Part shown: positions 129-11,593 of the stretch, piece by piece
Layout: every line of letters starts with the position of its first letter
Numbering within the stretch: the first letter of the stretch is position 1
Virus genome (UHGV): UHGV-1887975
Reading direction: 5' to 3' (one strand)
From: a virus
Length of the DNA stretch: 11,593 nucleotides
Notes under the pieces: model-generated
What the model was told of the DNA's origin: nothing
Seen by the model: the letters and a program-made list of their open reading frames with translations, nothing else
Database searches by the model: none
Made by a program: the position numbers and the translations under genes

Positions 129-141
129 CAATGACCCTTGA
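129..141. repeat. 13-bp exact direct repeat CAATGACCCTTGA, left copy; candidate left attachment-site core
   Basis: Identical 13-mer at 129..141 and 11514..11526, the latter immediately distal to the integrase gene. A single 13-mer match in an 11.6 kb window is not by itself significant. Confidence 0.3.
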
Positions 142-258
142 ATAAAGTCTATTCGGTTTTCTTTAGATGTTCGCCTCACATAATCTTCAAGTGATGTTCC
201 TTACATCTCCCTAGAGCGTTAAGATAGTTAACTGATTGAGTTTTCAGGGTATGAAAGG

Positions 259-924
259 ATGAGCAACACTACTGATTGGGGAAGCATGATAGCCAACATA
301 GTTATGGCTACTACCGCTGTCTGGGCTGCATTCAAAGCTAATGACTGGTTTAAAACCAAGCGTCTTGAGAGTGCTGAAAACTTCTATAAAGAAGTACACA
401 ATCTCCATAAACGTTACTATTCAGCTATCCAATACGTTGAGGATTCAAGAAGAATATTTGATAGTCAGTATGGGTTGCATTCGCCAATATCTGAACCTAA
501 AGACAAGTCATTGCAATGGGAGGTTAAATCGAACTCTTACAAAATCATCGCTGAACTAGATTATCTGGCATCGTCACTACAAATGATGGATGCAATGGGT
601 AACAAACTTAGCCCTAAATCGGCTTCACTGGTTAGTGATATGATGGAAGCACATGGACGATTCTGTAATGATGTGATGAACTTCAATGACTCAGTTTGGA
701 AGGTTATAAGGGCAGGTATAACTGAAGAGAACATCCCACATACGCGAGGCTATGTGAACGGCGATTACATGGCTATCCTTACCAGTATGGATGAACCTGT
801 AAGAATATCTTTTAAGTTAAAAGAAATCAGTTTTAAAGATTTTTACTTACATGAAACTACTATGCAGTCAGTAATAACGAGGCTGAAATCGCTTATCGCC
901 AGAACAGGTAAAAACAGGACATAA
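259..924 (+). CDS. Hypothetical protein, 221 aa, with predicted N-terminal transmembrane anchor
   Basis: Uninterrupted 666-nt ORF. Residues about 10-26 (IANIVMATTAVWAAF) form a hydrophobic helix followed by a charged soluble domain. The AAAGGA purine run abuts the ATG at 259 with essentially no spacer, so the true start may be the in-frame ATG at 286. No recognisable family motif. Confidence 0.55.
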   Translation: MSNTTDWGSMIANIVMATTAVWAAFKANDWFKTKRLESAENFYKEVHNLHKRYYSAIQYVEDSRRIFDSQYGLHSPISEPKDKSLQWEVKSNSYKIIAELDYLASSLQMMDAMGNKLSPKSASLVSDMMEAHGRFCNDVMNFNDSVWKVIRAGITEENIPHTRGYVNGDYMAILTSMDEPVRISFKLKEISFKDFYLHETTMQSVITRLKSLIARTGKNRT

Positions 925-1112
925 ACAGGTTAGTACCTATGCAATTTAACGGTATTTTTCCAAGTATCTATGCAATCCTACACAGATTCTATACAGTATC
1001 GACATAGTTTCCTTTTGGTATAACTTATTGAAATATATAAAGAATCTGTGAAGCCCCTTTTCAGGGTAAACTGTATCGTGTTAGTCGTCCCTCTCTCGAC
1101 TCCTAGAAAAGT

Positions 1113-1142
1113 GCTATATACAGGGCTATATAATGCTATATA
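1113..1142. repeat. Three tandem copies of GCTATATA (starts 1113, 1125, 1135)
   Basis: Direct reading: GCTATATAcaggGCTATATAatGCTATATA, spacing 12 and 10 bp. Contains a TATAAT hexamer at 1129..1134. Confidence 0.5.
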
Positions 1143-2591
1143 GATAGTTGGTCACATGGTGTAACTATCAAACTACTTAACAGTTTCCTACGTGAAAGTT
1201 AGAAAGTGATAGTTATAGTTACCTTGTCAAATCTTCGTAGTCCATTCTTAAAAAATCACTTACAGACACCTTAATATCTATACAGATTTCATGTAGAACA
1301 CGATTAGTGCGTAGAAGAGTCATTATGTTAAAAACGAACTGTATACGTATCAGTACTGATTTATAAGGGTTTTGTGTATTTGAAGATAAGAGGCTATACA
1401 GCACCTTGAGAGCATGTCTTCTAAGTCATTGATACATAAGGTCACAGAAGTTTGTGTCTGTTACAGAGAAAACTGGATAGGACTTCACAGAACTACAAAA
1501 TGTTACAGCTATTGATAGGTGAAATCTTCTTGATAGATGCCTTGAAGTGTGGTGAAGGTTTCTTGAGGTGGAGCTAAACAGATGCTATGAAGAAAGTCAA
1601 TAGTTGGTTATAGATATTTTAACTGCTTTTGCAAAGGGGGTGCTGTATCGTGAATCTGGGGTACTTAACAGCCATCAATCATGAGGTAGATTCTACCGAA
1701 TCAACTGTGTAGATATTTTTTAAGATTATCGGTGAAGGGGGAATGCAGAGGGGGGTACTACGATTTTTATAAAAATTTTCAGAAGCCAAATAACTACTGT
1801 GTATATTTTGCACAATCCTGCCAAACCTCATAGAAAGCTCTGTAGCGAGTTTTAACCCCATTTTTAGGGGTAACCTGTAGGGATGTACCACCCACCTTAA
1901 AATAAAGGGGTAAAATCGCTTAGAATGCGTTACAGAGCGTCTGAGAAGCTATATTCACAGATTTTACTAAAGTCTCAGACTTCTAAGTAGTCTTTTTAAC
2001 GGGAGGGTTCTTTCTCATGTATCACCCTCTCTTCCCGCTAAGTAAGCTACACAGACCTAGAGAACATGCCTTCACAGCATCTATATCAGGTCAGATTTAG
2101 AGGGTTTTGATAGAATTTTCAAAGGTACTTGACAGATAACTATGAAGTTGTTAGGAAGAATTGTTTAACGGGAGGAAAGATACGATATAACCCGAAGGGA
2201 AAGTATCATCTTAACAGTGATTGTAAGAGATACCTGAAAAGCTCCTCTTAACAGAACTACCAAGAAGAGAGGGAACGATAAGACCAGAGGTAGTGACCTG
2301 TTAAATAGTTCGTTTCAAAGCTCTTAAGAGTCTGTTAAGTAAGGGCTATGTGAACAATCTTACCATTTTGTCAATGCTCTTGTCTTTGACCTAAATCAAT
2401 AAAATGTATCGTTTGATATGGTTTTAAGCAAGATGGCTAAAAATCTTTTTAGAGGGGCGCTTCGCTTGTGTCACTATGTTCTTTCTCTCCCTGTCTAAGA
2501 GGGGGGTTACAGAGGTCTTTCAAGTCTCAATAGACAAACCGAGGAACGCAGGAAACCGAGGGAAGAAAAACTATTGTGATTACCCTGAACA

Positions 2592-2625
2592 AGGTCTGTA
2601 AAGGTCGTTTAAGAGGTCGGTTAAG
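2592..2625. repeat. Three tandem AGGTC-containing units of 10-12 bp (AGGTC at 2592, 2602, 2614); iteron-like
   Basis: Direct reading: aAGGTCtgtaa / AGGTCgtttaag / AGGTCggttaag. The last two units are 12 bp and differ at one position. Confidence 0.5.
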
Positions 2626-2749
2626 AAAGGAGCTTCCCTCTCTGGGGTTGTCGCTCTTCTCTCGCTTGGTGGATTGATTAGGGGGTATGTTATACAAGCC
2701 CAACTAAGAAGACCTCTGAAGCTTACCTGTGAAGAAGCTGAACAGCTAT

Positions 2750-2900
2750 TATATTGGGTGATTACAACTCATTGAAAAATAAGCATTTTTAGAAATCACT
2801 GTTAAGGTTGCAGAGTTGTCTGTGAGGAGACTTGTCTGCTCTCTATATTGGGTGGTTACAACTTATTGAAAAATAAGAACTTTTAGAAATCACTGTCAGA
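2750..2900. repeat. Pair of 57-bp imperfect direct repeats (2750..2806 and 2844..2900), 94-bp period
   Basis: Aligned by eye: TATATTGGGTGaTTACAACTcATTGAAAAATAAGcatTTTTAGAAATCACTGT versus TATATTGGGTGgTTACAACTtATTGAAAAATAAGaacTTTTAGAAATCACTGT, roughly 50 of 57 identical. Confidence 0.6.
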
Positions 2901-2998
2901 GAGGTGAATACTTGATAGATACAGCTTTCCGGTTCTGTCAAGTCATTTTTTAATAGATAGCATAAAATGCTAAAGATACCCCTATACCATCACGTACA

Positions 2999-3030
2999 GG
3001 GGGTTTTGAAGGGGGTTTAACGGGGGTCTG
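2999..3030. repeat. Three tandem G5-tract units (GGGGG at 2999, 3011, 3022)
   Basis: Direct reading: GGGGGTTTTGAA / GGGGGTTTAAC / GGGGGTCTGTG, spacing 12 and 11 bp. Overlaps the 3' end of the - strand small ORF. Confidence 0.5.
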
Positions 3031-3193
3031 TGTGGTCATTATCCTTAAGGTCAAGCGTCCATGTACGACCGAACAGTTTAAAGACAACAAGCACTCTGAC
3101 GAGGACGTAGCGAAGTAGCAGGCCTGCAATAAGTCCAATACCTCCACCAGCCCATACATCAGGTGACCCCAATTCTGGAGGGAGATTTACCAT
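3017..3193 (-). CDS. Putative small membrane protein, 58 aa (MVNLPPELGSPDVWAGGGIGLIAGLLLRYVLVRVLVVF...)
   Basis: Internal ATG of the track ORF 3017..3235 at 3191..3193 is preceded on the - strand by AAGGA about 7 nt upstream. It encodes a strongly hydrophobic glycine-rich helix of about 23 residues. It lies within locally GC-richer sequence, antisense to all neighbouring genes. Could be spurious. Confidence 0.35.
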   Translation of the reverse strand: MVNLPPELGSPDVWAGGGIGLIAGLLLRYVLVRVLVVFKLFGRTWTLDLKDNDHTDPR

Positions 3194-3410
3194 TAAATTT
3201 CCTTGTAAGACGCTCTCAATCGCATTCTGACACAAAAAAGTACCTGACCTTATAGTTGACCTGAAGAGGCCATTTAACTCGTTACAGAGCGATTGAAGAG
3301 GTCTGTGTGCAATGCAATAACCATGTGACCACTCTCATAGCCACGCCTCATATTTTACTCTCCCCATAGAACCATTATACCACAGATGTTAATGAAATGT
3401 TAAAAAGTGC

Positions 3411-3439
3411 TTGACATTAGTCTTTGAAAATGCTAGTAT
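3411..3439 (+). promoter_or_regulatory. Sigma70-type promoter: TTGACA, 17-bp spacer, TAGTAT
   Basis: Consensus -35 TTGACA at 3411..3416, 17-nt spacer, -10 TAGTAT at 3434..3439 (4 of 6 to TATAAT), about 48 bp upstream of the ATG at 3488. A TTAACAGAGG word sits at the expected transcription start. Confidence 0.55.
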
Positions 3440-3487
3440 TGTATATAAGTTAACAGAGGATTAACAATTATAAGGACTAGCTTATGA

Positions 3488-4042
3488 ATGAACGACAGAG
3501 AATTTAGAGCGATGCTTCAGGCATCAAGAGAACGCAACAAGCACAACTCCTACGCTTACACAAACAACCCCACCAGCTACGAACTACCAGCCTTTTCCAA
3601 ATCCGAACGTAAAAGCATTGAAGCGGTCATTCGTAGCATTACGCCACGAGGCAGATATATGCCAACACGCAAAACAACAAAGAATAACTTAAAAACTTTC
3701 TTGATGAGTTTTGACAGCTACGAACAATTACCGTCACGAATTGAAGATGTAATTATCGGCACTTGTCGCAGCTTTGGAAGGGATAACTATCACCGGAAAG
3801 TTTTCTATTTGCTTCGAAGCCTTGATGAGATTAACTCAAGCACAGTGACGAGCCATCTTCAAAGACAAGCAACCAGACTTAGCCACGAGCTACCATCTGA
3901 TAAGTATTGCGCTAATTTAACCACCATTTGCAATAAAGTTATCGAGACAATCAATCATCATGTTGGGGTTGGTAATATCAGCCTTACGACCAGTGAGCCA
4001 GACTTTGAATTTGACGTATACGCACAAGCAGAGGAATTTTAA
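3488..4042 (+). CDS. Hypothetical protein, 184 aa
   Basis: First gene after the predicted promoter; AAGGA about 10 nt upstream of the ATG. Basic, Ser/Thr/Arg-rich. No motif I can recognise. Confidence 0.65.
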   Translation: MNDREFRAMLQASRERNKHNSYAYTNNPTSYELPAFSKSERKSIEAVIRSITPRGRYMPTRKTTKNNLKTFLMSFDSYEQLPSRIEDVIIGTCRSFGRDNYHRKVFYLLRSLDEINSSTVTSHLQRQATRLSHELPSDKYCANLTTICNKVIETINHHVGVGNISLTTSEPDFEFDVYAQAEEF

Positions 4043-4043
4043 A

Positions 4044-4325
4044 ATGGGAAATAAACACACACTAACCAGAGTTACAAAGACAGCCTTTGAAGAACTTAAC
4101 CGAATCAAAAACATTACAGGTCTGCCACACTCAGCAGTGATGAAGCTTGCAATTAACCGTGATATTAACGAGCAGGATTTGCTTAATAGTCGTTTAGAGG
4201 CAGCAAGACACCATATCAGGATTAAGCAAGATGACCTTGATAGTCTGAAATCTTTAAATGCTTTTGGACTGGATTTAGCAAGGTTACTAAGTATCAAAAT
4301 TCACAAATTAGCGATGGAGGTTTAA
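4044..4325 (+). CDS. Hypothetical small protein, 93 aa (start moved to the RBS-supported ATG)
   Basis: Track ORF 3960..4325 would overlap the upstream gene by about 80 nt. The in-frame ATG at 4044 is preceded by GAGGAA (4031..4036) and begins 2 nt after the upstream stop. Its stop overlaps the next start (TAATG). Confidence 0.6.
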   Translation: MGNKHTLTRVTKTAFEELNRIKNITGLPHSAVMKLAINRDINEQDLLNSRLEAARHHIRIKQDDLDSLKSLNAFGLDLARLLSIKIHKLAMEV

Positions 4326-4711
4326 TGTATGACTTTTATAAACATCGTGACCATTTGGTAAGATTTGACGGTAAAGTCTGGAAAGACGTAACACAAACCA
4401 ATAAGCCCAAGTTTACCCACCAGCAATTAGCCTCAAGATTTGATATCTGGGCTGAAGCACAAAAAGATAATGGTGATTTCGAGTTTATCAGAGGTTTTGA
4501 TTATGCTTACGAAAGCGACCTTAAAGACGCCATTGAATTAATGGAGAACTTCAACTCTATTAAAAATAGTGACAAGCACAAAGCCAACGGTAACAGATAC
4601 GATAAAGATTTAATCATTGATGCAATCACCAAAGGACAATCACAAAGTTATATTTCTGAGAAATACGGCTTATCACGTAGTCAATACTACAAGATTAAAG
4701 CGTCTGTGTAA
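4325..4711 (+). CDS. Putative DNA-binding protein with C-terminal helix-turn-helix, 128 aa; possible transcriptional activator
   Basis: The C-terminal segment DKDLIIDAITKGQSQSYISEKYGLSRSQYYKIKASV has the classic pattern of a helix-turn-helix as found in small phage activators and sigma region-4-like domains. The start is translationally coupled to the upstream gene. Family assignment is an inference. Confidence 0.6.
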   Translation: MYDFYKHRDHLVRFDGKVWKDVTQTNKPKFTHQQLASRFDIWAEAQKDNGDFEFIRGFDYAYESDLKDAIELMENFNSIKNSDKHKANGNRYDKDLIIDAITKGQSQSYISEKYGLSRSQYYKIKASV

Positions 4712-4723
4712 GTCTGTGAGAAT

Positions 4724-4792
4724 GAGTGAGACTCAAAGATGAGCTACCCTATTACTAAGGTGTCTCACTCCCTCTGTAACCCGCATGGTTAC
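4724..4792 (+). promoter_or_regulatory. Two consecutive hairpin-forming inverted repeats in the gap between genes
   Basis: Perfect 9-bp inverted repeat GAGTGAGAC (4724..4732) / GTCTCACTC (4762..4770) with a 29-nt loop, followed by a 6-bp stem GTAACC (4776..4781) / GGTTAC (4787..4792) with a 5-nt loop. No U-tract follows either, so they are not classic terminators. Confidence 0.4.
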
Positions 4793-4849
4793 TGGCCTCA
4801 GAATGGCTATTTTGGCAGATTTAAGATGTGTTTTTATAGGATTTTAAAA

Positions 4850-5173
4850 ATGAATAATTTCCCACTACAGATTTTTATTGATACCGACACCGCCATGATG
4901 ATTCAGGCTTTCACTGATGTAGGTGTTAGCATTGACTTTGATAAGTTGTTAGAGTTAATGGCTGATNATNCNGANANCATCTNTGACTTTATTCACTCGG
5001 TGGAGTTTAACGAGCCTCGAATGATGTTACCAATTACAGACAGTAATATGAAAAGATTGGTTATTGAGCAAACGAACAAATACAGTATTTCCCCAGAGCA
5101 ATTTTTGAAAGGTGCTGTGACAATCCTGTACAGCGATAATATTTTGGTTACGGATTCCGTGAGGGTTCACTAA
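4850..5173 (+). CDS. Hypothetical protein, about 107 aa (alternative start 4739 gives 144 aa); contains ambiguous bases
   Basis: Track ORF 4739..5173. The ATG at 4739 lies inside the hairpin region, so the in-frame ATG at 4850 is preferred, but neither has a strong RBS. Codons 4967..4984 include N, so several residues are undefined. Confidence 0.45.
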   Translation: MNNFPLQIFIDTDTAMMIQAFTDVGVSIDFDKLLELMADXXXXIXDFIHSVEFNEPRMMLPITDSNMKRLVIEQTNKYSISPEQFLKGAVTILYSDNILVTDSVRVH

Positions 5174-5250
5174 TGGGCTTAATAATTGCTTGGACGTTGC
5201 TTGGCTTATTTGTTGGTTGCTGGGTGGGTAACACAGTAAATAAGAATTGA
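5173..5250 (+). CDS. Candidate micro-ORF encoding a 25-aa hydrophobic peptide (MGLIIAWTLLGLFVGCWVGNTVNKN)
   Basis: Its ATG overlaps the upstream stop (TAATG at 5171..5175), suggesting translational coupling. The peptide is almost entirely one transmembrane-like helix. Below the length cut-off of the ORF track and could be fortuitous. Confidence 0.3.
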   Translation: MGLIIAWTLLGLFVGCWVGNTVNKN

Positions 5251-5468
5251 TGTTATCAATCTGTTAAAAGCTGTTGACAAATAACCTTAAGCATGAGATG
5301 ATGGTAATAGGGGGCAACTCTTCCTGAATTAAACTATTAATCATTCTACATCAATGATAGTTATTCTGAGTTGGAAAGGTGCAATGCTTTTCGTCATGGC
5401 CTATTTAGCCCACACTAGATAGGCTATCTCAAAAAGTCTTTGTTTATTCATTGAATCCTTTACAGATT

Positions 5469-5496
5469 GCCCTAATCATGAGTTAGGGCGTTTTTT
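5469..5496 (+). terminator. Rho-independent terminator
   Basis: Perfect 7-bp stem GCCCTAA (5469..5475) / TTAGGGC (5483..5489), 7-nt loop, followed by G then TTTTTT (5491..5496). Confidence 0.65.
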
Positions 5497-5667
5497 AAGA
5501 GTTTTTAAAGAAATTTCTTCACCAGCCCTTTATAGCGTTTTAGTTATCTAGGGCTTTTTCAGCTTTTAAAAAGCATACTTGGCAAACGCTTTTAAGTCTC
5601 TTCTAAGTTCGTAGGCTGTCAGGTGTGCTTTTTAAAAACTGAATATTACTTAGAAGAGGAAAAAACA

Positions 5668-6378
5668 ATGACAAACGATTTATATATTAACGGCAGAAAG
5701 ATTGATAGCTTCGGGGACTGGTCACCACAGGGTGAACATCCGCTACATACTATTCAGCGTAAAGAACACGATGAAAGAATTAAGCTTGAGCAAGAGTTAA
5801 AGATGTCACCAAAGGTAATTTCCTTTGTGTCTCCTGAGCCTCAAGAAATGCCTGATGTATGCAAAACTGAAGCACTATTTAATCTTGAGCGTGAATATTA
5901 CCCACTGCTAAAAGCACAGCGTATTAAACTAGATGACGCTTACAGCAAAGTTACCCTGATGCAATCAGCTATTGAGCCATCAGAATTTGAGATTCAGGAT
6001 GAATTGTCACAGAAACCATTTGTCTATTACAAATATGAAGACAATGATGGTTTTGGTACTTTTCCTGAGAATATCCCAGACGTGATTAATAATCTTCCTG
6101 ATGGATATCGAATTGTGAAGATGGTTAAAGCTTCAAGAGGTGCTGGTCAGTTTATTTTCATGACCGATAGGAGCGATGAAGAACTCTGTGAAATTGCTAA
6201 ACAGAACATCTTAGCATCACGTAACAAGCAACTTGAAAATGTTAAGTTGTATCTCTCAAGAGAGCTTCAGGCTATGAAAGAGCTTGTTAGTGAATATGAA
6301 TCACAGAAGAAGATTGCTATGCAGGCTGATATTGAGCAGTTAGTGAAGATTTCTCAGAAATATGCAAAGGCACTTTAA
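5668..6378 (+). CDS. Hypothetical protein, 236 aa (start moved to the RBS-supported ATG)
   Basis: Track ORF starts at 5623. The in-frame ATG at 5668 is preceded by GAGGA (5656..5660) with 7-nt spacing. Acidic, with a coiled-coil-like C-terminus. No recognisable motif. Confidence 0.65.
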   Translation: MTNDLYINGRKIDSFGDWSPQGEHPLHTIQRKEHDERIKLEQELKMSPKVISFVSPEPQEMPDVCKTEALFNLEREYYPLLKAQRIKLDDAYSKVTLMQSAIEPSEFEIQDELSQKPFVYYKYEDNDGFGTFPENIPDVINNLPDGYRIVKMVKASRGAGQFIFMTDRSDEELCEIAKQNILASRNKQLENVKLYLSRELQAMKELVSEYESQKKIAMQADIEQLVKISQKYAKAL

Positions 6379-6402
6379 CTATGAATTAAAAGGAGGTGGT
6401 GA

Positions 6403-6606
6403 ATGATTGATTTAACAGAACGCTATGAGCTTATTAAAGCAATTAGTGAACGATTGAAAGAACAACCCAACAAACCAAAACGAATCAAATCATCCACCTC
6501 TAAGCAAAAGAATAGAATCAGAAGAATCGCTAAATGGTGTCTTGATAAATTACCAAGTGATTGTCAGATTGTCGGTGAAGATGGTAATTATTATCTGGTT
6601 AGGTAA
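6403..6606 (+). CDS. Hypothetical small basic protein, 67 aa
   Basis: Strong RBS AAGGAGG (6390..6396) 6 nt upstream of the ATG. Lys/Arg-rich centre (KPKRIKSSTSKQKNRIRRIAK). Followed by a terminator. Confidence 0.65.
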   Translation: MIDLTERYELIKAISERLKEQPNKPKRIKSSTSKQKNRIRRIAKWCLDKLPSDCQIVGEDGNYYLVR

Positions 6607-6631
6607 AAAGATTGGTTGGGTAAAAATCAAC

Positions 6632-6672
6632 GGGAGAGATTATCGAGTGACATCGGTAGCTCTCCCTTTTTT
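6632..6672 (+). terminator. Rho-independent terminator
   Basis: Stem GGGAGAG (6632..6638) / CTCTCCC (6660..6666) enclosing a 21-nt loop, followed directly by TTTTTT (6667..6672). Confidence 0.6.
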
Positions 6673-6702
6673 GTATATGAGATAGTCTTCTATCGAATCC
6701 TG

Positions 6703-6801
6703 TGTGCTACGTGATGATTCGGATAAGAATTATCCTCATGAAATCTGTAAAACTAATACCCACACTGAAAAATAGAATTTACGTACAACACGCTTAAAGA
6801 G
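6703..6801 (+). promoter_or_regulatory. Upstream regulatory cassette, copy 1: GTGTGCTACGTGA, ATACCCAC-N-AAAAAT, TTTACGTA, CACGCTTAAAGAG
   Basis: The same four blocks occur in the same order upstream of the gene at 9102. This copy carries an extra palindrome GGATAAGAATTATCC (6721..6735) between the first and second blocks. Confidence 0.55.
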
Positions 6802-6812
6802 GTGAAACATGA

Positions 6813-8936
6813 ATGAGCAAATTCACAGTTGATAGTTTTATCGTTGAGCTAGGCTTCAATGAAAACGTTATTAAGGGACTGCAAAGAGTTGAAAAGGCAG
6901 CTTTGCAGTCAGCACAAAGAATTGAAAAGAACCTAAATAAAGGTTTCAGGATTAATACAAAGCAGCTTGATAGTAATTTAACGGCTTCTTTAGGGCAGCT
7001 TGAAAGGAAGTTTAATAAGGCCTTTGACAAGATTGAACAGAGAGCAAGAAATACTAAAGCTTTCCAGTTTACCACCAGATTTAATGACACTGTTAATCCT
7101 CCAAAACAACCAAGACAGCCACGAATTAGCGGAAACAGAGCAATCACAGCAGCTTACTCAGCGAATATGAGCAAGCTAAAAGGCCTTAACCCAATTGTCG
7201 AGAAATACATTAAGAGTCAGTTTTACGGGCTATCTGCTAAAGCCGGGTCAATGGATTCTTCAAAATTCAATGAGAAGTTAGCTCAGTTAAACGCTTCAGT
7301 CAGAGAAGCAATTGCTAAAGCCAGAGGTCATACATCCACCAGCATTAATGGTGACAGAGCAGCTAATAGTCTTGATAACCTGTCTTCAGCAGCAGTTAAA
7401 ACAGCAGGTGCATTTATCTCAATGCAGGCTGTATTAGCCAGTTATCAGAAGATTATGGAAATTGGTTTACAGCGTGCAAGTGCTGAACGTTCAATTGATT
7501 TCGTATTTGATAAAGATGCAGGTCAGGTAAAAGAGTTCACAAAGTCATTAGCTCAAACAACGGGTTTAGATATCGCTGAACTGCAATCACAGTTTGCTGG
7601 TTTTGGTGCTTCAGCTAAAGAGTCTATGGGTATTCAAGGTTCTGAAGAACTTTTTAAAAATATGATTGGCTATGCTCGTCTGATGGGGAGAAGTGAAGAA
7701 GAGATTAAGCGAGCACTGACAGCATTATCACAGATGGCTGGTAAGGGTCAGATTATGGCTGAAGAGCTTAAGGGGCAACTGGCTGAAGCTGTTCCTGGTA
7801 TGGTTCAGGTATTCGCTAAAGCAACCGGAAAGACTGAACAGGAATTATTTGATGCCATGAAGAAGGGGGCTTTAAAATCTGCCGATACTCTTCAGAAGGT
7901 CACTCAGGAACTGAATAAACAAATCACCGCTAAAGGTGGCTGGAAAGCCATTTCAGAAAGTACTCAGGCACAACTAGGGAACTTGAAAAACTCTTGGAAT
8001 ACCACGCTTGATAGTATCTTCAGAGGTTCTGAAAATGGTCTGCAAGATTTTACACGAAGCCTAACAACGCTTTTAAACGCTCTTGGTGGAAGTGGTAAAA
8101 GTCTTGGTGAATCTCTTGGTAGTCTCATGACTTCTATGTCACATGGTGTCGATAGTCTGACCGATATTAGTTACAAGGTGCGAGCGTTCTTTGATGAGGT
8201 GACATTAGCTTACCGTTCACTAAATGACACTCAGAGGAAAATTGTTGATGGTTTATCTGATGGGTTAATTGATGGTTTGAAGATGCTTGCTGTGGCTGTT
8301 ACTGCTCAAAAGGCTGCAAATGTAGCTGGAGGCTTGTTAAACCTTGCAAATGCTGTTACTTCATTCGGTGATGCTGTTAATAAAGCTAAAGCTGGCAAGG
8401 CTGGTTCTTCAGGTGGTGCGCTAAGTAAAGTCGGTAGAGTTGTCCTTTATGCTGAGTTGGTAAACTTTGCTCTTGATAATTTAAACCCTGAAGCAGCTAA
8501 GAATCCGAACTTACACCAATCAGGTATTGGTACAGAAACAAACTTCAATCCTGAATACAAAGGCGATTCTAAACCAAACCAAATTAATGAGGGGTGGGCT
8601 AAGATTGGTAGTTCTATCGCTGACTGGTTTAATGGTGCAGCTAATAAAATTGCTAACTTACAAGAACCGATGAATAACTTCGTAAATAACACACAATCAA
8701 CTCCACCAGCTATCGACACGGTGAATATCAATGCTCAATTAGCTATGGCTGTATCAGAGTTAGGAAGAAAGGTTGATGCTTTAACAGTAGAAGCTCGGAA
8801 GCCTTTATCAGTTAATATCAAAGGTGAAGCAATTGTTAGGCCGGATGAGCCATCTTTCTTTAATTTCAATCAATCAGCTAATGACCAGTTCACGCAGGAT
8901 ATGCTCTTAAGTTCAAGCTATCCAGAGGAAGAATGA
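6813..8936 (+). CDS. Tape-measure-domain protein, 707 aa (putative phage tail length tape-measure protein)
   Basis: The central segment GYARLMGRSEEEIKRALTALSQMAGKGQIMAEELKGQLAEAVPGMVQVFAKATGKTEQELFDAMKKGALKSADTL matches, as I recall it, the conserved tape-measure signature of lambda gpH-type proteins. N-terminus is coiled-coil-like; C-terminal third is Asn/Gln/Ser-rich low complexity. RBS AGAGGTG about 10 nt upstream. Confidence 0.75.
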   Translation: MSKFTVDSFIVELGFNENVIKGLQRVEKAALQSAQRIEKNLNKGFRINTKQLDSNLTASLGQLERKFNKAFDKIEQRARNTKAFQFTTRFNDTVNPPKQPRQPRISGNRAITAAYSANMSKLKGLNPIVEKYIKSQFYGLSAKAGSMDSSKFNEKLAQLNASVREAIAKARGHTSTSINGDRAANSLDNLSSAAVKTAGAFISMQAVLASYQKIMEIGLQRASAERSIDFVFDKDAGQVKEFTKSLAQTTGLDIAELQSQFAGFGASAKESMGIQGSEELFKNMIGYARLMGRSEEEIKRALTALSQMAGKGQIMAEELKGQLAEAVPGMVQVFAKATGKTEQELFDAMKKGALKSADTLQKVTQELNKQITAKGGWKAISESTQAQLGNLKNSWNTTLDSIFRGSENGLQDFTRSLTTLLNALGGSGKSLGESLGSLMTSMSHGVDSLTDISYKVRAFFDEVTLAYRSLNDTQRKIVDGLSDGLIDGLKMLAVAVTAQKAANVAGGLLNLANAVTSFGDAVNKAKAGKAGSSGGALSKVGRVVLYAELVNFALDNLNPEAAKNPNLHQSGIGTETNFNPEYKGDSKPNQINEGWAKIGSSIADWFNGAANKIANLQEPMNNFVNNTQSTPPAIDTVNINAQLAMAVSELGRKVDALTVEARKPLSVNIKGEAIVRPDEPSFFNFNQSANDQFTQDMLLSSSYPEEE

Positions 8937-8952
8937 TTTCTTATATATATCC

Positions 8953-9026
8953 GTGTGCTACGTGAAATCTTCTGAACGGATATACCCACTAAAAATTATT
9001 TTTTACGTAGCTCACGCTTAACAGAG
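8953..9026 (+). promoter_or_regulatory. Upstream regulatory cassette, copy 2: GTGTGCTACGTGA, ATACCCACTAAAAAT, TTTACGTA, CACGCTTAACAGAG
   Basis: Same four blocks as 6703..6801 in the same order and similar spacing, but without the palindrome insert. Ends about 75 nt upstream of the ATG at 9102. Confidence 0.55.
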
Positions 9027-9101
9027 AAAATACTTATATATCAAAGGTTTGGTTAAAAATGATTAAAATACACTAAGCCTTTGAAATCAAAGGAGAATTT
9101 A

Positions 9102-9872
9102 ATGATTTACACTAATCAGCTTCGTTACAGTGGCAAAGATGGTGTTTACTTCCATCTACAAGGCCAACCAGATAATTTCTTGTCACTATCAGCAACTGAG
9201 AACATGGAATATGACAGCCCTATGATGGTGACCACTCAAAATATGCAATCAGGGCAGACTGTAACAGATAATGTAATGCGTTCACCAAGAACTATTTCAA
9301 TCAGTGGTGTGGTTGTGGTTGGTGAATCCGGTAGTATCCTTATCTCAAGAGATAATAAGCTGGTGGAAAACTTCATAGACACTCTTGAAAACTGGCGTGA
9401 CCAGAAGCAAATTATCTCAGTTGTCTGTAAAGATGGTATTAAGATTGACGACTCAATTATTACAAGCTTTAAAGCCTCTAAAGATGTTGGTATTTCAAAC
9501 GGCCTAAGAATCCAGCTAACTTTTCAGGAAATCAACTTTAAAGCTATCGTAGGGCAAACTGATATTTCGACTGCTACTGGCAAGACCGCTACCACGAATG
9601 ATGGTGGTGCTACTTCTAAGAAGAATACAGGGAATACTACGACAAGTCTTGGAAGCCCTATGCTGACCTGTAAAGAGCTTTTTAGCTATTCGGCAAGTAA
9701 GTTATCAGATGAAGCGCTAAAAGCCCGTGTAACGTGCTCTAAGAGCGTTAGCGTTAAAAATGGTGAGAGCACCTTCACAGCCTCAGCTAATGAGCAAGCT
9801 TCAAAGGTGCTTAAGTCGGGTAATGCTTTACGGAAGTACTCTGTGAATCCGAATAAGAAGGGCACTTATTGA
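9102..9872 (+). CDS. Hypothetical protein, 256 aa; possible tail-associated structural protein by position only
   Basis: The track ORF begins at a TTG (9081). The ATG at 9102 has AAGGAG (9090..9095) at 6-nt spacing. Ser/Thr/Gly-rich. Assignment as tail-associated rests only on its position after the tape-measure-like gene. Confidence 0.65.
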
Positions 9873-9876
9873 GACA

Positions 9877-9899
9877 TAAAAAGGGGCTTCATAGCCCCT
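9877..9899. terminator. Terminator hairpin between convergent genes
   Basis: Perfect 7-bp GC-rich stem AGGGGCT (9882..9888) / AGCCCCT (9893..9899) with a 4-nt loop. AAAAA (9877..9881) on the + strand gives a U-tract after the stem for the - strand transcript (integrase); a weaker A/T stretch follows for the + strand. Confidence 0.6.
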
Positions 9900-9904
9900 G
9901 AAAA

Positions 9905-11425
9905 TTACAGTTGATAAGCGTCAATATCCAGTAGCTCTTTATCAGCAATTTCAAAGATTGGTGACCCATCATTTAGCGGTAACGGGTTTGTAGGTATGGT
10001 TATTTCAGTGTCGTTCTGTAGCGTTACAGTTACCGAATCCTTACCCAATGTCAGCCCCTTTAGATGCTTGGACAAAATCAACTGACACTCGACACGACCC
10101 GCTTTAGTTGTCAGGTCAATATCTTTAAGCTGGGGTAGTTCCTTATCAGTGAGTGAAGCCTTACGCCTCATGTTATCAATCGTGGTCTGTAGCTCTGTGC
10201 GCTTCTGGTTCAGTTCCTTAAGCTGAATTTTTAGTTCATCAATATCATCCATCTCAAGAAGTAGGGCGGTAGCTTTCTTGATTCTGGTTGTGACAATTTC
10301 AACCTCATGCTGTAGAGATGCAATCTTCCCCTCTGCTTCTCCATCATTCCCCACGTCAATCATCCCCAGAAAATTATCAATCATCCACTTATCAAACGGT
10401 TTACGCTTCAACGGAGGAACATCACAGCGACCATCAAGATGGTTATTGCACCGATAAACGCCCTGATACTTATTCTTAGTCCCTGTAGGGTGAACACTAG
10501 CCCCGCACTGACACCTAAACAGACCTTTGAAGATGTTAATCGTTAATGGATTATCACTTGCAGGTGTACGGCCTATACGGTTCTTACCAAGAATCTCTTG
10601 AGCTTTATTGAACGTTGAAGCATCTATAGCGGCTTCGTAGTAGTTCGGTATAGCGGGGCGGTCATTACGTTGTGATGCTGGTAACGTGCCTATCGTTGTC
10701 TCTGACCTTAAGATGGTGCGTACAGAGTGAACACTAAACCCGTTAGCATCTTTACGGCGACTAAACGACTTTATACCGTTGCTTTGAAGGTGACGGGCGA
10801 TGTTATGCAGACTTTCACCACTTAGCAGCAGCTTGAAAATCAGTCTTACAGTCTCAGCGTGTTCATTGAGTTTAAAAGTATCGGGGTCAATCCATCCGGG
10901 AACCATCTTTGTTAAACGTTGTTCACCAGCAAGGGCAAGTTTTGCACGTTGCTCCCATTTCTGAGAAACACGGAAAGACTTCTGCTTAGATTCCTGATGC
11001 GCTATGTAGGCTTTGACACGCTGGATGATTGAGATTCCTAAATCATCGGCTAAAGCATCCTTTGTGTAGATAAGACCATCTTGTAGCGTGTGAATCTCTA
11101 ACCCGTTGCCTAAGATGCGATTCATCAAGGCTTCTGTTTCAAGGTGTTCTAAGCGGCCTATACGGTCGATACTCTCAACAAGCAAAATCGTACCTTCTGG
11201 AAACTCCCCAGACTCAATACGGGCTAACATGTCACCAAACTGACCAGTAAGATGCTTACCTTTGTAACCGGATAGGCCTTCATCACTGAAAGACGCTACT
11301 ACTTGAGCATCGCTATTCTTCTTCAGCCACTGCTTGAACAGGTCGTTTTGTCGTCTGGTTGAATCTGCACCTTCAGCGCCTTGTATAGCTGAACTGTACC
11401 GAAGGTATGTAATTACGCTCCTCAT
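9905..11425 (-). CDS. int: Large serine recombinase (site-specific integrase), 506 aa
   Basis: N-terminal resolvase-type catalytic domain with candidate nucleophilic Ser in YLRYSSAIQ, a D-x-G-x-SG motif (SDEGLSGYKG) and LVESIDRIGR resembling the resolvase DRLGR box. A large recombinase domain follows, then a Cys-rich zinc-ribbon-like segment (CQCG...C...C) and a C-terminal coiled coil. This is the typical large-serine-recombinase architecture. GGGAG RBS upstream on the - strand. Confidence 0.9.
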   Translation of the reverse strand: MRSVITYLRYSSAIQGAEGADSTRRQNDLFKQWLKKNSDAQVVASFSDEGLSGYKGKHLTGQFGDMLARIESGEFPEGTILLVESIDRIGRLEHLETEALMNRILGNGLEIHTLQDGLIYTKDALADDLGISIIQRVKAYIAHQESKQKSFRVSQKWEQRAKLALAGEQRLTKMVPGWIDPDTFKLNEHAETVRLIFKLLLSGESLHNIARHLQSNGIKSFSRRKDANGFSVHSVRTILRSETTIGTLPASQRNDRPAIPNYYEAAIDASTFNKAQEILGKNRIGRTPASDNPLTINIFKGLFRCQCGASVHPTGTKNKYQGVYRCNNHLDGRCDVPPLKRKPFDKWMIDNFLGMIDVGNDGEAEGKIASLQHEVEIVTTRIKKATALLLEMDDIDELKIQLKELNQKRTELQTTIDNMRRKASLTDKELPQLKDIDLTTKAGRVECQLILSKHLKGLTLGKDSVTVTLQNDTEITIPTNPLPLNDGSPIFEIADKELLDIDAYQL

Positions 11426-11488
11426 GGTGATAAACTCCCATGCAATTGATTCTCATTTAAAGATAAGCTTATAACCATTATGGCTAAT

Positions 11489-11526
11489 GCTACAATGCCG
11501 AATAGCTACAATACAATGACCCTTGA
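11489..11526. repeat. Integrase-proximal repeat cluster: GCTACAATG / GCTACAAT / ACAATG, then the right copy of CAATGACCCTTGA; candidate attachment-site region
   Basis: Direct reading of 11489..11526. The 13-mer at 11514..11526 is identical to 129..141. Sequence to the right becomes GC-rich (cctcgccgcttcccctggccgacg...). Confidence 0.4.
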
Positions 11527-11593
11527 TTTACCTCGCCGCTTCCCCTGGCCGACGTTACTTTCGGTCTGCATTCATGGTGCTGTTGTGGCGGGG

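Follow-up and report, generated by a model that had tools for sequence, protein, structure and literature searches.

A non-coding core of a satellite-like island in Escherichia coli with homology to the terminal repeat of Felix O1-like phages

The subject of this report is the region 925-3487 of the virus genome UHGV-1887975, a stretch of 11,593 bp (the window) which matches the yciI-tonB interval of the chromosome of Escherichia coli UTAK-18 (NZ_CP157132) at 99.8% identity. The window contains an island of ~11.4 kb, bounded by 13-bp direct repeats and situated between yciI and tonB, of which the region forms the core. We consider, with a probability of about 0.55, that this core is a cis-acting mimic of the direct terminal repeat (DTR) junction of a helper phage, set in word arrays like those of the helper, and that it belongs to a satellite-like island of Felix O1-like phages (Felixounavirus / Mooglevirus). 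The sole known homology of the region is to the terminal-repeat junction of these phages, including its physical end, and it therefore points first to packaging.

Results

Homology to the terminal repeats of Felix O1-like phages

No GenBank phage record contains the region. When 50,697 phage records were searched by distant blastn, the sole matches were Felix O1-like phages, and these matches fell in unannotated stretches close to the ends of many of the records. The Felix O1-like phages package unit genomes with a DTR at their ends, and the repeat is situated in ~1.7 kb of gene-free DNA flanked by convergent genes. For one of them, Pr103Blw, a DTR of 581 bp from base 1 was found by PhageTerm (PMC8303462), and the record of UAB_69 has an annotated DTR of 618 bp. 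When the two are aligned (alignment A1), their annotations coincide at both DTR boundaries, the left one being ...ATGCTA|GCCCCCTTAAC and the right one ...GTTAAGGGCTACC|AAGCAG. Several other phage records start at the same left boundary, and DTRs in Felixounavirus isolates are given in another genome announcement. The 'direct terminal repeat' behind the completeness call of the Citrobacter phage KMM2 (OP902295; L007/L008) is merely an assembly overlap of 64 bp, not the physical repeat of ~600 bp found in the genus.

Two elements of the core, R and I (Table 1), are homologous to parts of the phage DTR. R corresponds to its right boundary: blastn matches R to phage JH2, and the local alignment of the two has a score of 59.5, the maximum among shuffled sequences being 17.5. 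In an alignment of four phages and ten satellites (alignment A2), the invariant segments of R are, in order, GATATTTT, TTTTGCAAAG(GGGG), GGGNTACYWARCAG, AGATATTTTT and TTTTATAAAAATTTT. The third of these, GGGNTACYWARCAG, spans the physical right end, which reads GGGCTACC|AAGCAG in the phage and GGGGTACT|TAACAG in the window, so that the right-end cut of the phage corresponds to 1665|1666 of the window. The words of the R motif are single-copy in the 88.5 kb of phage KMM2.

R also contains an optional insertion of 27 nt with a hairpin. The identical 27 nt are present in JH2, the window, L003, L006, L014 and L020, and absent from Pr103Blw, UAB_69, nataliec and other satellites; the 24-nt core of the insertion, with at most three edits, occurs in 14 of 53 distinct satellite R elements. 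As the same insertion is present or absent in both groups, the variants of R in the satellites mirror those in the phages.

The second element, I, has the consensus GGGAACGATAAGAnnAGrGrTAGTGACCnTGTTAA, gives blastn matches to five phages, and corresponds to a site in the phages which is nearly invariant among the four aligned (alignment A3). When a profile of eight satellite regions was searched with nhmmer against the whole rotated genome of KMM2, R and I were the only matches, and both fell in the DTR region. Overall, R and I share 65-75% identity with the phage. Their order differs between the two groups: in the phages I lies ~290 bp before the R cut, whereas in the satellites R comes first and is followed by I. 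The distance from the R end-site to I, measured in 31 of the 53 satellites, is mostly ~590-710 bp, with a range of 172-1115 bp. Because of this order and a spacing of ~600-700 bp, nearly the whole island lies between I and the next R downstream.

Two further candidate correspondences were not significant. One was 'AGCCCCTTTTCAGGG' at ~1050, 611 bp to the left of the R site, which was first taken as a possible left end and then abandoned; the other was between block A (901-1250), the left edge of the core, and the post-repeat region of the phage, with a score of 20.5 against up to 29.5 for shuffled sequences.

Word arrays, G-runs and repeats

R and I both lie within arrays of the 8-mer word CTNNNNAG that resemble the arrays of the phage. 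In 925-3487 there are 47 copies of the word where 13 would be expected (z ~10); the gene-free regions of the phage have 63 and 58 copies for an expectation of 12 (z ~15). Neither CTN3AG nor CTN5AG is enriched. In the phage the words recur at 10-12 bp (a phasing of 10.5-11 bp), with harmonics at 21-22, 31-33 and 43-44 bp. In the island, 14 successive spacings are of 9-13 bp, where 3.5 are expected. The words may be phased protein-binding sites. The word is also found in coding DNA above the first-order Markov expectation, a null which ignores codon structure (782 vs 412 in KMM2; 78 vs 36 in 3488-11593 of the window).

The strand bias of G-tracts noted in the preliminary description is borne out by counting: the plus strand of the region has eight runs of five or more G and none of five or more C, and with runs of four or more included the numbers are 13 and 5. 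First-order Markov simulations give 1.2 G-runs of this length on average, and none of 2000 simulations reached eight. Most of the G-runs, as judged by eye, follow directly after words ending in AG (CAAAG-GGGG, GTGAAG-GGGG, CAGAG-GGGGG, TACAG-GGGG-TTTTGAAG-GGGG). G-runs of the same style occur in the right half of the phage region (AGAGGGGCT, ATAGGGGCT), and its left half has more often C-runs. When the window is aligned with seven relatives, most G-runs are kept as G-rich words, their length varying from G3 to G6, and those at 1867, 1907 and 2681 are missing from several of the eight sequences.

The repeats described earlier were also recovered. Tandem Repeats Finder returned the three triple arrays, at 903-930 (period 11), 1110-1142 (period 12) and 2998-3027 (period 11), and a further array of two copies at 2602-2626. 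What had been taken as a 57-bp repeat pair is the pair 2750-2802 / 2844-2896, of 53 nt at 92% identity, or of ~80 nt at ~82%. The recurring words are GTTACAGAG (four copies), CTTAACAG (four) and TTTAACGGG (three), with every copy on the plus strand.

A conserved non-coding core

The region had been described as free of plus-strand open reading frames (ORFs) of more than 60 amino acids (aa); in fact it has none even of 50 aa or more, and the RefSeq/PGAP annotation of NZ_CP157132 places nothing in it. The region was compared with 12 relatives, namely the E. coli chromosomes L003-L006, the metagenome contigs L012, L014 and L016, the IMG/VR loci L017-L020 and the Escherichia albertii sequence L022. 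Every ORF of at least 35 aa in 925-3000 is interrupted in several of these relatives, with the exception of a 58-aa frame on the minus strand. The substitutions over 925-3016 show no periodicity with respect to codon position (937/943/955, p = 0.9); strong periodicity is seen in p184, p251, the Dit gene and the 58-aa gene.

The segments 950-1250 and 2150-3500 are found in all 12 relatives, and block A in all 12 at 78-94% identity. Across the relatives, the identity of the region is 86.5%, compared with 79-83% for p184, p251 and Dit. The relatives differ in integrase and in insertion site (that of L014, for example, being in wrbA), and the core is kept among them. By megablast the region is present in 544 of 5426 complete E. 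coli genomes, always in the chromosome and never on a plasmid. A scan of species-representative genomes yielded E. albertii fragments only.

Thus 925-3016 does not code for protein, and no other part of the island is conserved so widely within its family. The pattern of conservation indicates that this stretch of ~2.1 kb is under selection though non-coding. The earlier view that the region is not mere filler is therefore correct: it is a conserved block, dense in repeated words resembling protein sites, and the best-conserved core of the element.

The island and its possible excised forms

Besides the core, the island encodes a large serine recombinase of 506 aa (minus strand, 9905-11425; domains Resolvase, Recombinase and Zn_ribbon_recom), a tape-measure protein (gene 6813-8936) and a Dit-like tail protein (gene 9081-9872), the last two being its only structural genes. 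The other products are seven small proteins to which Pfam, PHROGs and NCBIfam assign no family except for one weak helix-turn-helix match. Only two of the products are homologous to those of a Felix O1-like phage: the tape measure (28% aa identity) and Dit (65% aa; 80-84% nt). With its integrase and att sites, its small size and its lack of a full set of virion or replication genes, the island is of the kind regarded as a phage satellite.

The island and the phage are both devoid of GATC. The island (143-11520) has none where 49 are expected, compared with 51 against 57 expected in the flanking chromosome; KMM2 has none against 308 expected, and the relatives L012, L014, L016 and L045 also have none. 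The genus is known from published work to lack GATC (PMC5477317, PMC4690856).

The metagenome contig L045 (ERZ506742 NODE_633, 11,233 bp) has a terminal overlap of 55 bp in the assembly data, as is typical of a circular or tandem assembly, and is circularly permuted relative to the integrated island. L047 is likewise permuted, its break lying near the duplicated block by coordinate estimate. These two permuted contigs suggest that the island also exists as an excised circle or concatemer.

The right end of the region

The 58-aa gene is the sole conserved coding sequence within 925-3487. Its frame is kept at 78-100% aa identity across the 12 relatives and contains a stop in one alignment only (L006), its substitutions by codon position are 98/13/55 (p = 7e-15), and the gene is called in metagenome contigs. 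Downstream of it, the terminator-like hairpins at 2959-3002 have a structure conservation index of 0.72-0.93. The divergent promoter-like sites at 3374-3440 are conserved at 91-94% in all 12 relatives and, by their resemblance to the sigma-70 consensus, are likely to act as divergent promoters. The conserved frame, the promoter-like site and the terminators therefore make up a small transcription unit at the right end, divergent from the promoter-like site at 3411-3439. The emptiness reported for the whole region thus holds for ~925-3016, but not for the right-hand ~470 bp, which are occupied by the 58-aa minus-strand gene, the terminator hairpins and the divergent promoter-like sites.

Cargo and other features of the island

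The window has a cargo ORF of its own between attL and the core. In L005, L006, L014 and L016 this cargo (259-924) is absent and the non-coding core begins directly after attL; in the first three of these, attL is joined to a position equivalent to ~901-937 of the window. The cargo of the relatives sits at a few fixed hotspots, between conserved blocks of the core and in the operon, and includes an AP2/HNH-type gene, HNH endonucleases, a Dam-type methylase and a small serine recombinase.

Some observations were made outside the core. Six ambiguous bases (N) lie at 4967-4983, within the ORF 4739-5173, in place of which PGAP calls a shorter gene of 107 aa (4851-5174) in the near-identical genome. 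The protein p251 (5623-6378) is labelled 'transposase' by NCBI in hundreds of genomes; it matches no family of Pfam, PHROGs or NCBIfam and no fold significantly, and its AlphaFold2 (AF2) model consists mostly of long helices with a small beta element. The gap 5420-5640 is strongly structured on the plus strand (z = -5.7 over 221 nt; z = -7.5 for 5521-5640), with two terminator-like hairpins followed by U-runs and a ~75-nt hairpin with a perfect stem which overlaps the listed GTG start of the 251-aa ORF. The true start of this ORF is probably the ATG at 5668. A sequence of ~70 nt upstream of the Dit gene recurs upstream of the tape-measure gene in relatives at ~83-84% identity, and may be a promoter or regulatory site shared by the two tail genes.

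Table 1. Positions of the features of the core and the island (window coordinates unless another sequence is named)
Feature	Position	Strand	Remarks
attL core CAATGACCCTTGA, 13 bp	130-142		direct repeat read in the window ends
attR copy of CAATGACCCTTGA	~11521-11533		5' end of tonB
221-aa ORF	259-924		the window's own cargo
Block A	901-1250		left edge of core; CTNNNNAG word pairs and GCTATATA triple array (1110-1142)
R element	~1590-1800	+	homologue of right boundary of phage DTR
R motif GATATTTT	1613-1620	+
R motif TTTTGCAAAG with G5 run	1627-1640	+
R end-site motif GGGGTACT|TAACAG	1658-1671	+
Optional 27-nt insertion with hairpin (CATGAGGTAGATTCTACCGAATCAACT)	1680-1706	+	inside R
R motif AGATATTTTT	1711-1720	+
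AT palindrome ATTTTTATAAAAATTTT, 17 bp	1763-1779	+	in R
Runs of five or more G	1636, 1737, 1750, 2501, 2681, 2999, 3011, 3022	+
Long-hairpin element, ~150 nt	1815-1965	-	inverted copy of 3202-3305 (alignment A4)
I element GGGAACGATAAGACCAGAGGTAGTGACCTGTTAAATAG	2271-2308	+	homologue of unique site ~290-335 of phage DTR
Tandem duplication, ~80-bp block	2723-2896		53-nt cores 2750-2802 and 2844-2896; conserved in relatives
Hairpin AGCATAAAATGCT	2959-2971		terminator scan; bidirectional terminator-like; downstream of 58-aa gene
Hairpin CCCCTATACCATCACGTACAGGGG	2979-3002		terminator scan; bidirectional terminator-like; downstream of 58-aa gene
AGGGGGT triple array	2998-3027		adjoins terminator hairpins (Tandem Repeats Finder)
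58-aa gene (MVNLPPELGSPDVWAGGGIGLIAGLLLRYVLV...)	3017-3193	-	ATG start; hydrophobic, membrane-like stretch
Second long-hairpin copy	3202-3305	+	23-nt internal deletion; between 58-aa gene and divergent promoter-like sites
Sigma-70-like promoter TTAACA-18-TATAAT	3403-3374	-	11/12 consensus; faces 58-aa gene
Sigma-70-like promoter TTGACA-17-TAGTAT	3411-3439	+	10/12 consensus; faces operon starting at 3488
Intergenic repeat, ~70 nt	8953-9026; L012 6772-6844, 9023-9092; L016 6703-6775, 8954-9023
Cargo in relatives	L004 2153-2677; L005 1004-1552, 4563-4850; L006 2021-2689, 4511-4783

Discussion

Proposed packaging by the helper

If the core does mimic the DTR junction, infection by the helper would be followed by excision of the island by its own serine recombinase and the formation of circles or concatemers. 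The terminase and end-processing machinery of the helper would then recognise I and R, and the island DNA would be cut and packaged into helper particles, to which the tape-measure and Dit proteins of the island may contribute. The same region may recruit replication functions of the helper. Packaging by the helper terminase is suggested because R coincides with the physical genome end; terminase recognition, packaging and any role in replication are putative functions read from sequence comparison.

Several points weigh against this explanation. The order and spacing of R and I are unlike those of the phage, so the core is not a simple copy of a functional junction. A homologue of the left boundary of the DTR was not detected, a pattern search allowing up to three mismatches giving no match and local alignment no score above those of shuffled sequences. 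R and I account for only ~250 bp of the 2.1 kb, and the explanation assigns no role to the remainder (block A, 2370-2950 and the duplicated block). None of the contigs from 49 metagenome and four viral loci ends at the R site, and the ~11-kb contigs L012, L014 and L016 end at their att sites. Among the island genes none could be recognised as related to capsid size or to a terminase. For SEP1, a Felixounavirus, headful (pac) packaging has been reported (PMC13431587), in conflict with the reports of DTRs. Finally, R and I could be replication or regulatory sites instead of packaging sites.

Alternative explanations

The preliminary description had offered two interpretations of the region, an origin and regulatory hub with iterons or large structured RNAs transcribed from left to right. 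The first of these was right in spirit as far as a cis-acting hub is concerned, but not with regard to an iteron origin: no initiator has been identified, there is no cluster of DnaA boxes, and the only arrays are short triples of 11-12 bp.

It is nevertheless conceivable, though we think it unlikely, that the region is a replication origin at which R, I, the AT palindrome and the short arrays recruit replication proteins of the helper or of the island, and that the homology to the terminal region of the phage reflects an origin located there. Such a role would be compatible with packaging. It is favoured by the conservation of the AT-rich palindrome ATTTTTATAAAAATTTT in both phages and satellites, by the triple arrays of 11-12-bp units, by the strand-biased G-runs together with a positive GC skew across 1200-3000, and by the need of the island to replicate if it is to give circular or concatemeric forms. 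In the satellite PLE, too, the origin is situated in a large non-coding region. However, searches of the island proteins against Pfam, PHROGs, NCBIfam and the PDB sequences revealed no initiator, primase or helicase, and Foldseek comparison of AF2 models with the PDB gave no informative match for p184 (pLDDT 66) or p251 (pLDDT 72), the only two proteins modelled. Of the usual marks of an iteron origin, the short triple arrays and the 17-bp AT palindrome are seen, but long iterons are not, and the DnaA boxes come down to a single relaxed match at 1806. Moreover, the best-conserved motif shared with the phage falls on the physical end of the genome, a landmark of packaging, and an origin in the core presupposes that the phage has its own origin at the terminal region. 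Since the palindrome and the short arrays would suit an origin and the island must replicate, this explanation is retained as one that does not exclude packaging.

A still less probable explanation is that the region is a transcribed regulatory one, with non-coding RNAs or leaders and operators that sense infection by the helper and switch the island on; the ~150-nt hairpin and words such as GTTACAGAG would then be RNA or operator motifs. In its favour are the divergent promoter-like sites at 3374-3440, which with weaker ones number 12 against 7.6 expected, the hairpins at 2959-3002, which look like terminators for both directions, and the long-hairpin element (1815-1965 / 3202-3305). This element folds with z = -3.2 and -2.8, and the structure conservation index is ~0.8 at 3202-3305. 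In relatives it lies directly upstream of a gene of 102-107 aa, with ribosome-binding site and ATG, and it is probably a leader or operator module. Against this explanation, cmscan with Rfam at E up to 1 gave no match in 925-3487. The minimum free energy z-scores of sliding 120-nt windows on both strands of 925-2880 are mostly between -2 and +2, with a few near -3. The alifold structure conservation index for 21 relatives over the same interval is below ~0.6 except at local hairpins, the alignment being poor over the mosaic segment 1680-2040; the terminators and the hairpin element stand out from this background. Words of the GTTACAGAG type are not repeated at the gene starts of the phage. Regulatory functions of this kind would account for at most a few hundred bp and leave the homology to the phage terminal repeat unexplained. 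The second of the earlier interpretations, large structured RNAs, is for the same reasons not supported, while a small RNA within 1680-2040, or other small transcripts from the region, could still exist. A scan for tRNAs found none in the region, and a weak mir-75 match at 5198-5293, outside it, is due to chance.

Finally, the notion that pseudogenes or frameshift errors conceal ordinary genes, for which one may cite the real cargo genes (AP2/HNH-type gene, Dam methylase, small recombinase) inserted at several points in relatives, is effectively refuted, as the same arrangement without genes is seen in independent complete genomes and in metagenome contigs, the six ambiguous bases of the window all lie outside the region, the ORFs are not conserved and the substitutions lack codon periodicity, and the conservation exceeds that of the neighbouring genes.

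Significance

Returning to the mimicry of the DTR junction, a wider and more tentative proposal, to which we give somewhat less than even odds, is that the island is the first recognised satellite of a DTR-packaging virulent myophage (Felixounavirus) in E. coli. The core would then imitate the helper concatemer junction in rearranged form, as a decoy in which I (recognition) and R (termination or cleavage) flank the whole genome, so that the terminase would package island concatemers. The decoy might also titrate the terminase and thereby protect the host population, and the CTNNNNAG words would be binding sites for a genome-end protein of the phage. A literature search found no description of a satellite of Felix O1 or the Ounavirinae, nor of the phage's own non-coding region, and the island family is apparently undescribed.

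Were these proposals correct, satellite biology would be extended, by an island found in ~10% of the complete E. coli genomes, to the virulent phages of the Felix O1 type, which are widely used in the diagnostics and therapy of Salmonella and E. coli. The R and I motifs and the CTNNNNAG arrays would provide the first functional handles on how the terminal repeat of these phages is recognised and cut, and the island could account for cases in which such phages fail, or give an altered yield, depending on the strain.

Comparison with known systems

The known enterobacterial satellites, namely the P4-like elements, the phage-inducible chromosomal islands (PICI) and the capsid-forming PICI (cfPICI), exploit temperate phages which package by cos or pac. 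Satellite P4 is without a terminase and carries a copy of the cos site of its helper P2, so that the helper terminase packages P4. The proposed role of the island core is similar in that a cis-acting copy of the helper genome-end site is involved. The differences are that the presumed helper of the island has direct terminal repeats rather than cohesive ends, that the island has two short rearranged sites without a copy of the left boundary, and that these sites are placed in ~2 kb of word arrays; packaging of the island, for its part, is putative.

In Vibrio cholerae the island PLE is a satellite which depends on the virulent myophage ICP1; it has a large serine recombinase and a non-coding region containing cis-acting repeats. 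The present island is likewise small and chromosomal, with a large serine recombinase, a virulent myophage as presumed helper, proteins mostly without assigned function and a large non-coding region. No sequence or protein homology to PLE was seen and no RepA-type initiator recognised, and unlike PLE the island encodes tape-measure and Dit homologues of its presumed helper. Its non-coding region is homologous to the terminal repeat of the helper, rather than being a self-contained iteron origin.

Iteron origins resemble the core in being non-coding blocks with short direct-repeat arrays and an AT-rich element. The core differs from them in the lack of a recognised Rep protein and of clustered DnaA boxes, in arrays which comprise 2.6-2.9 copies of 11-12 bp, and in having degenerate words instead of iterons of 17-22 bp.

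In the concatemer junction of T7-like phages, the terminal repeat is flanked by arrays of short words, with pac sites. The resemblance to this junction lies in the gene-free end region, in the degenerate words around a repeat of a few hundred bp, and in cleavage and recognition sites that are unique among the words. The Felix O1-like phages, however, belong to another phage family, their words are CTNNNNAG at a phasing of ~11 bp, their repeat is longer (581-618 bp), and the arrangement is present on both the island and the phage.

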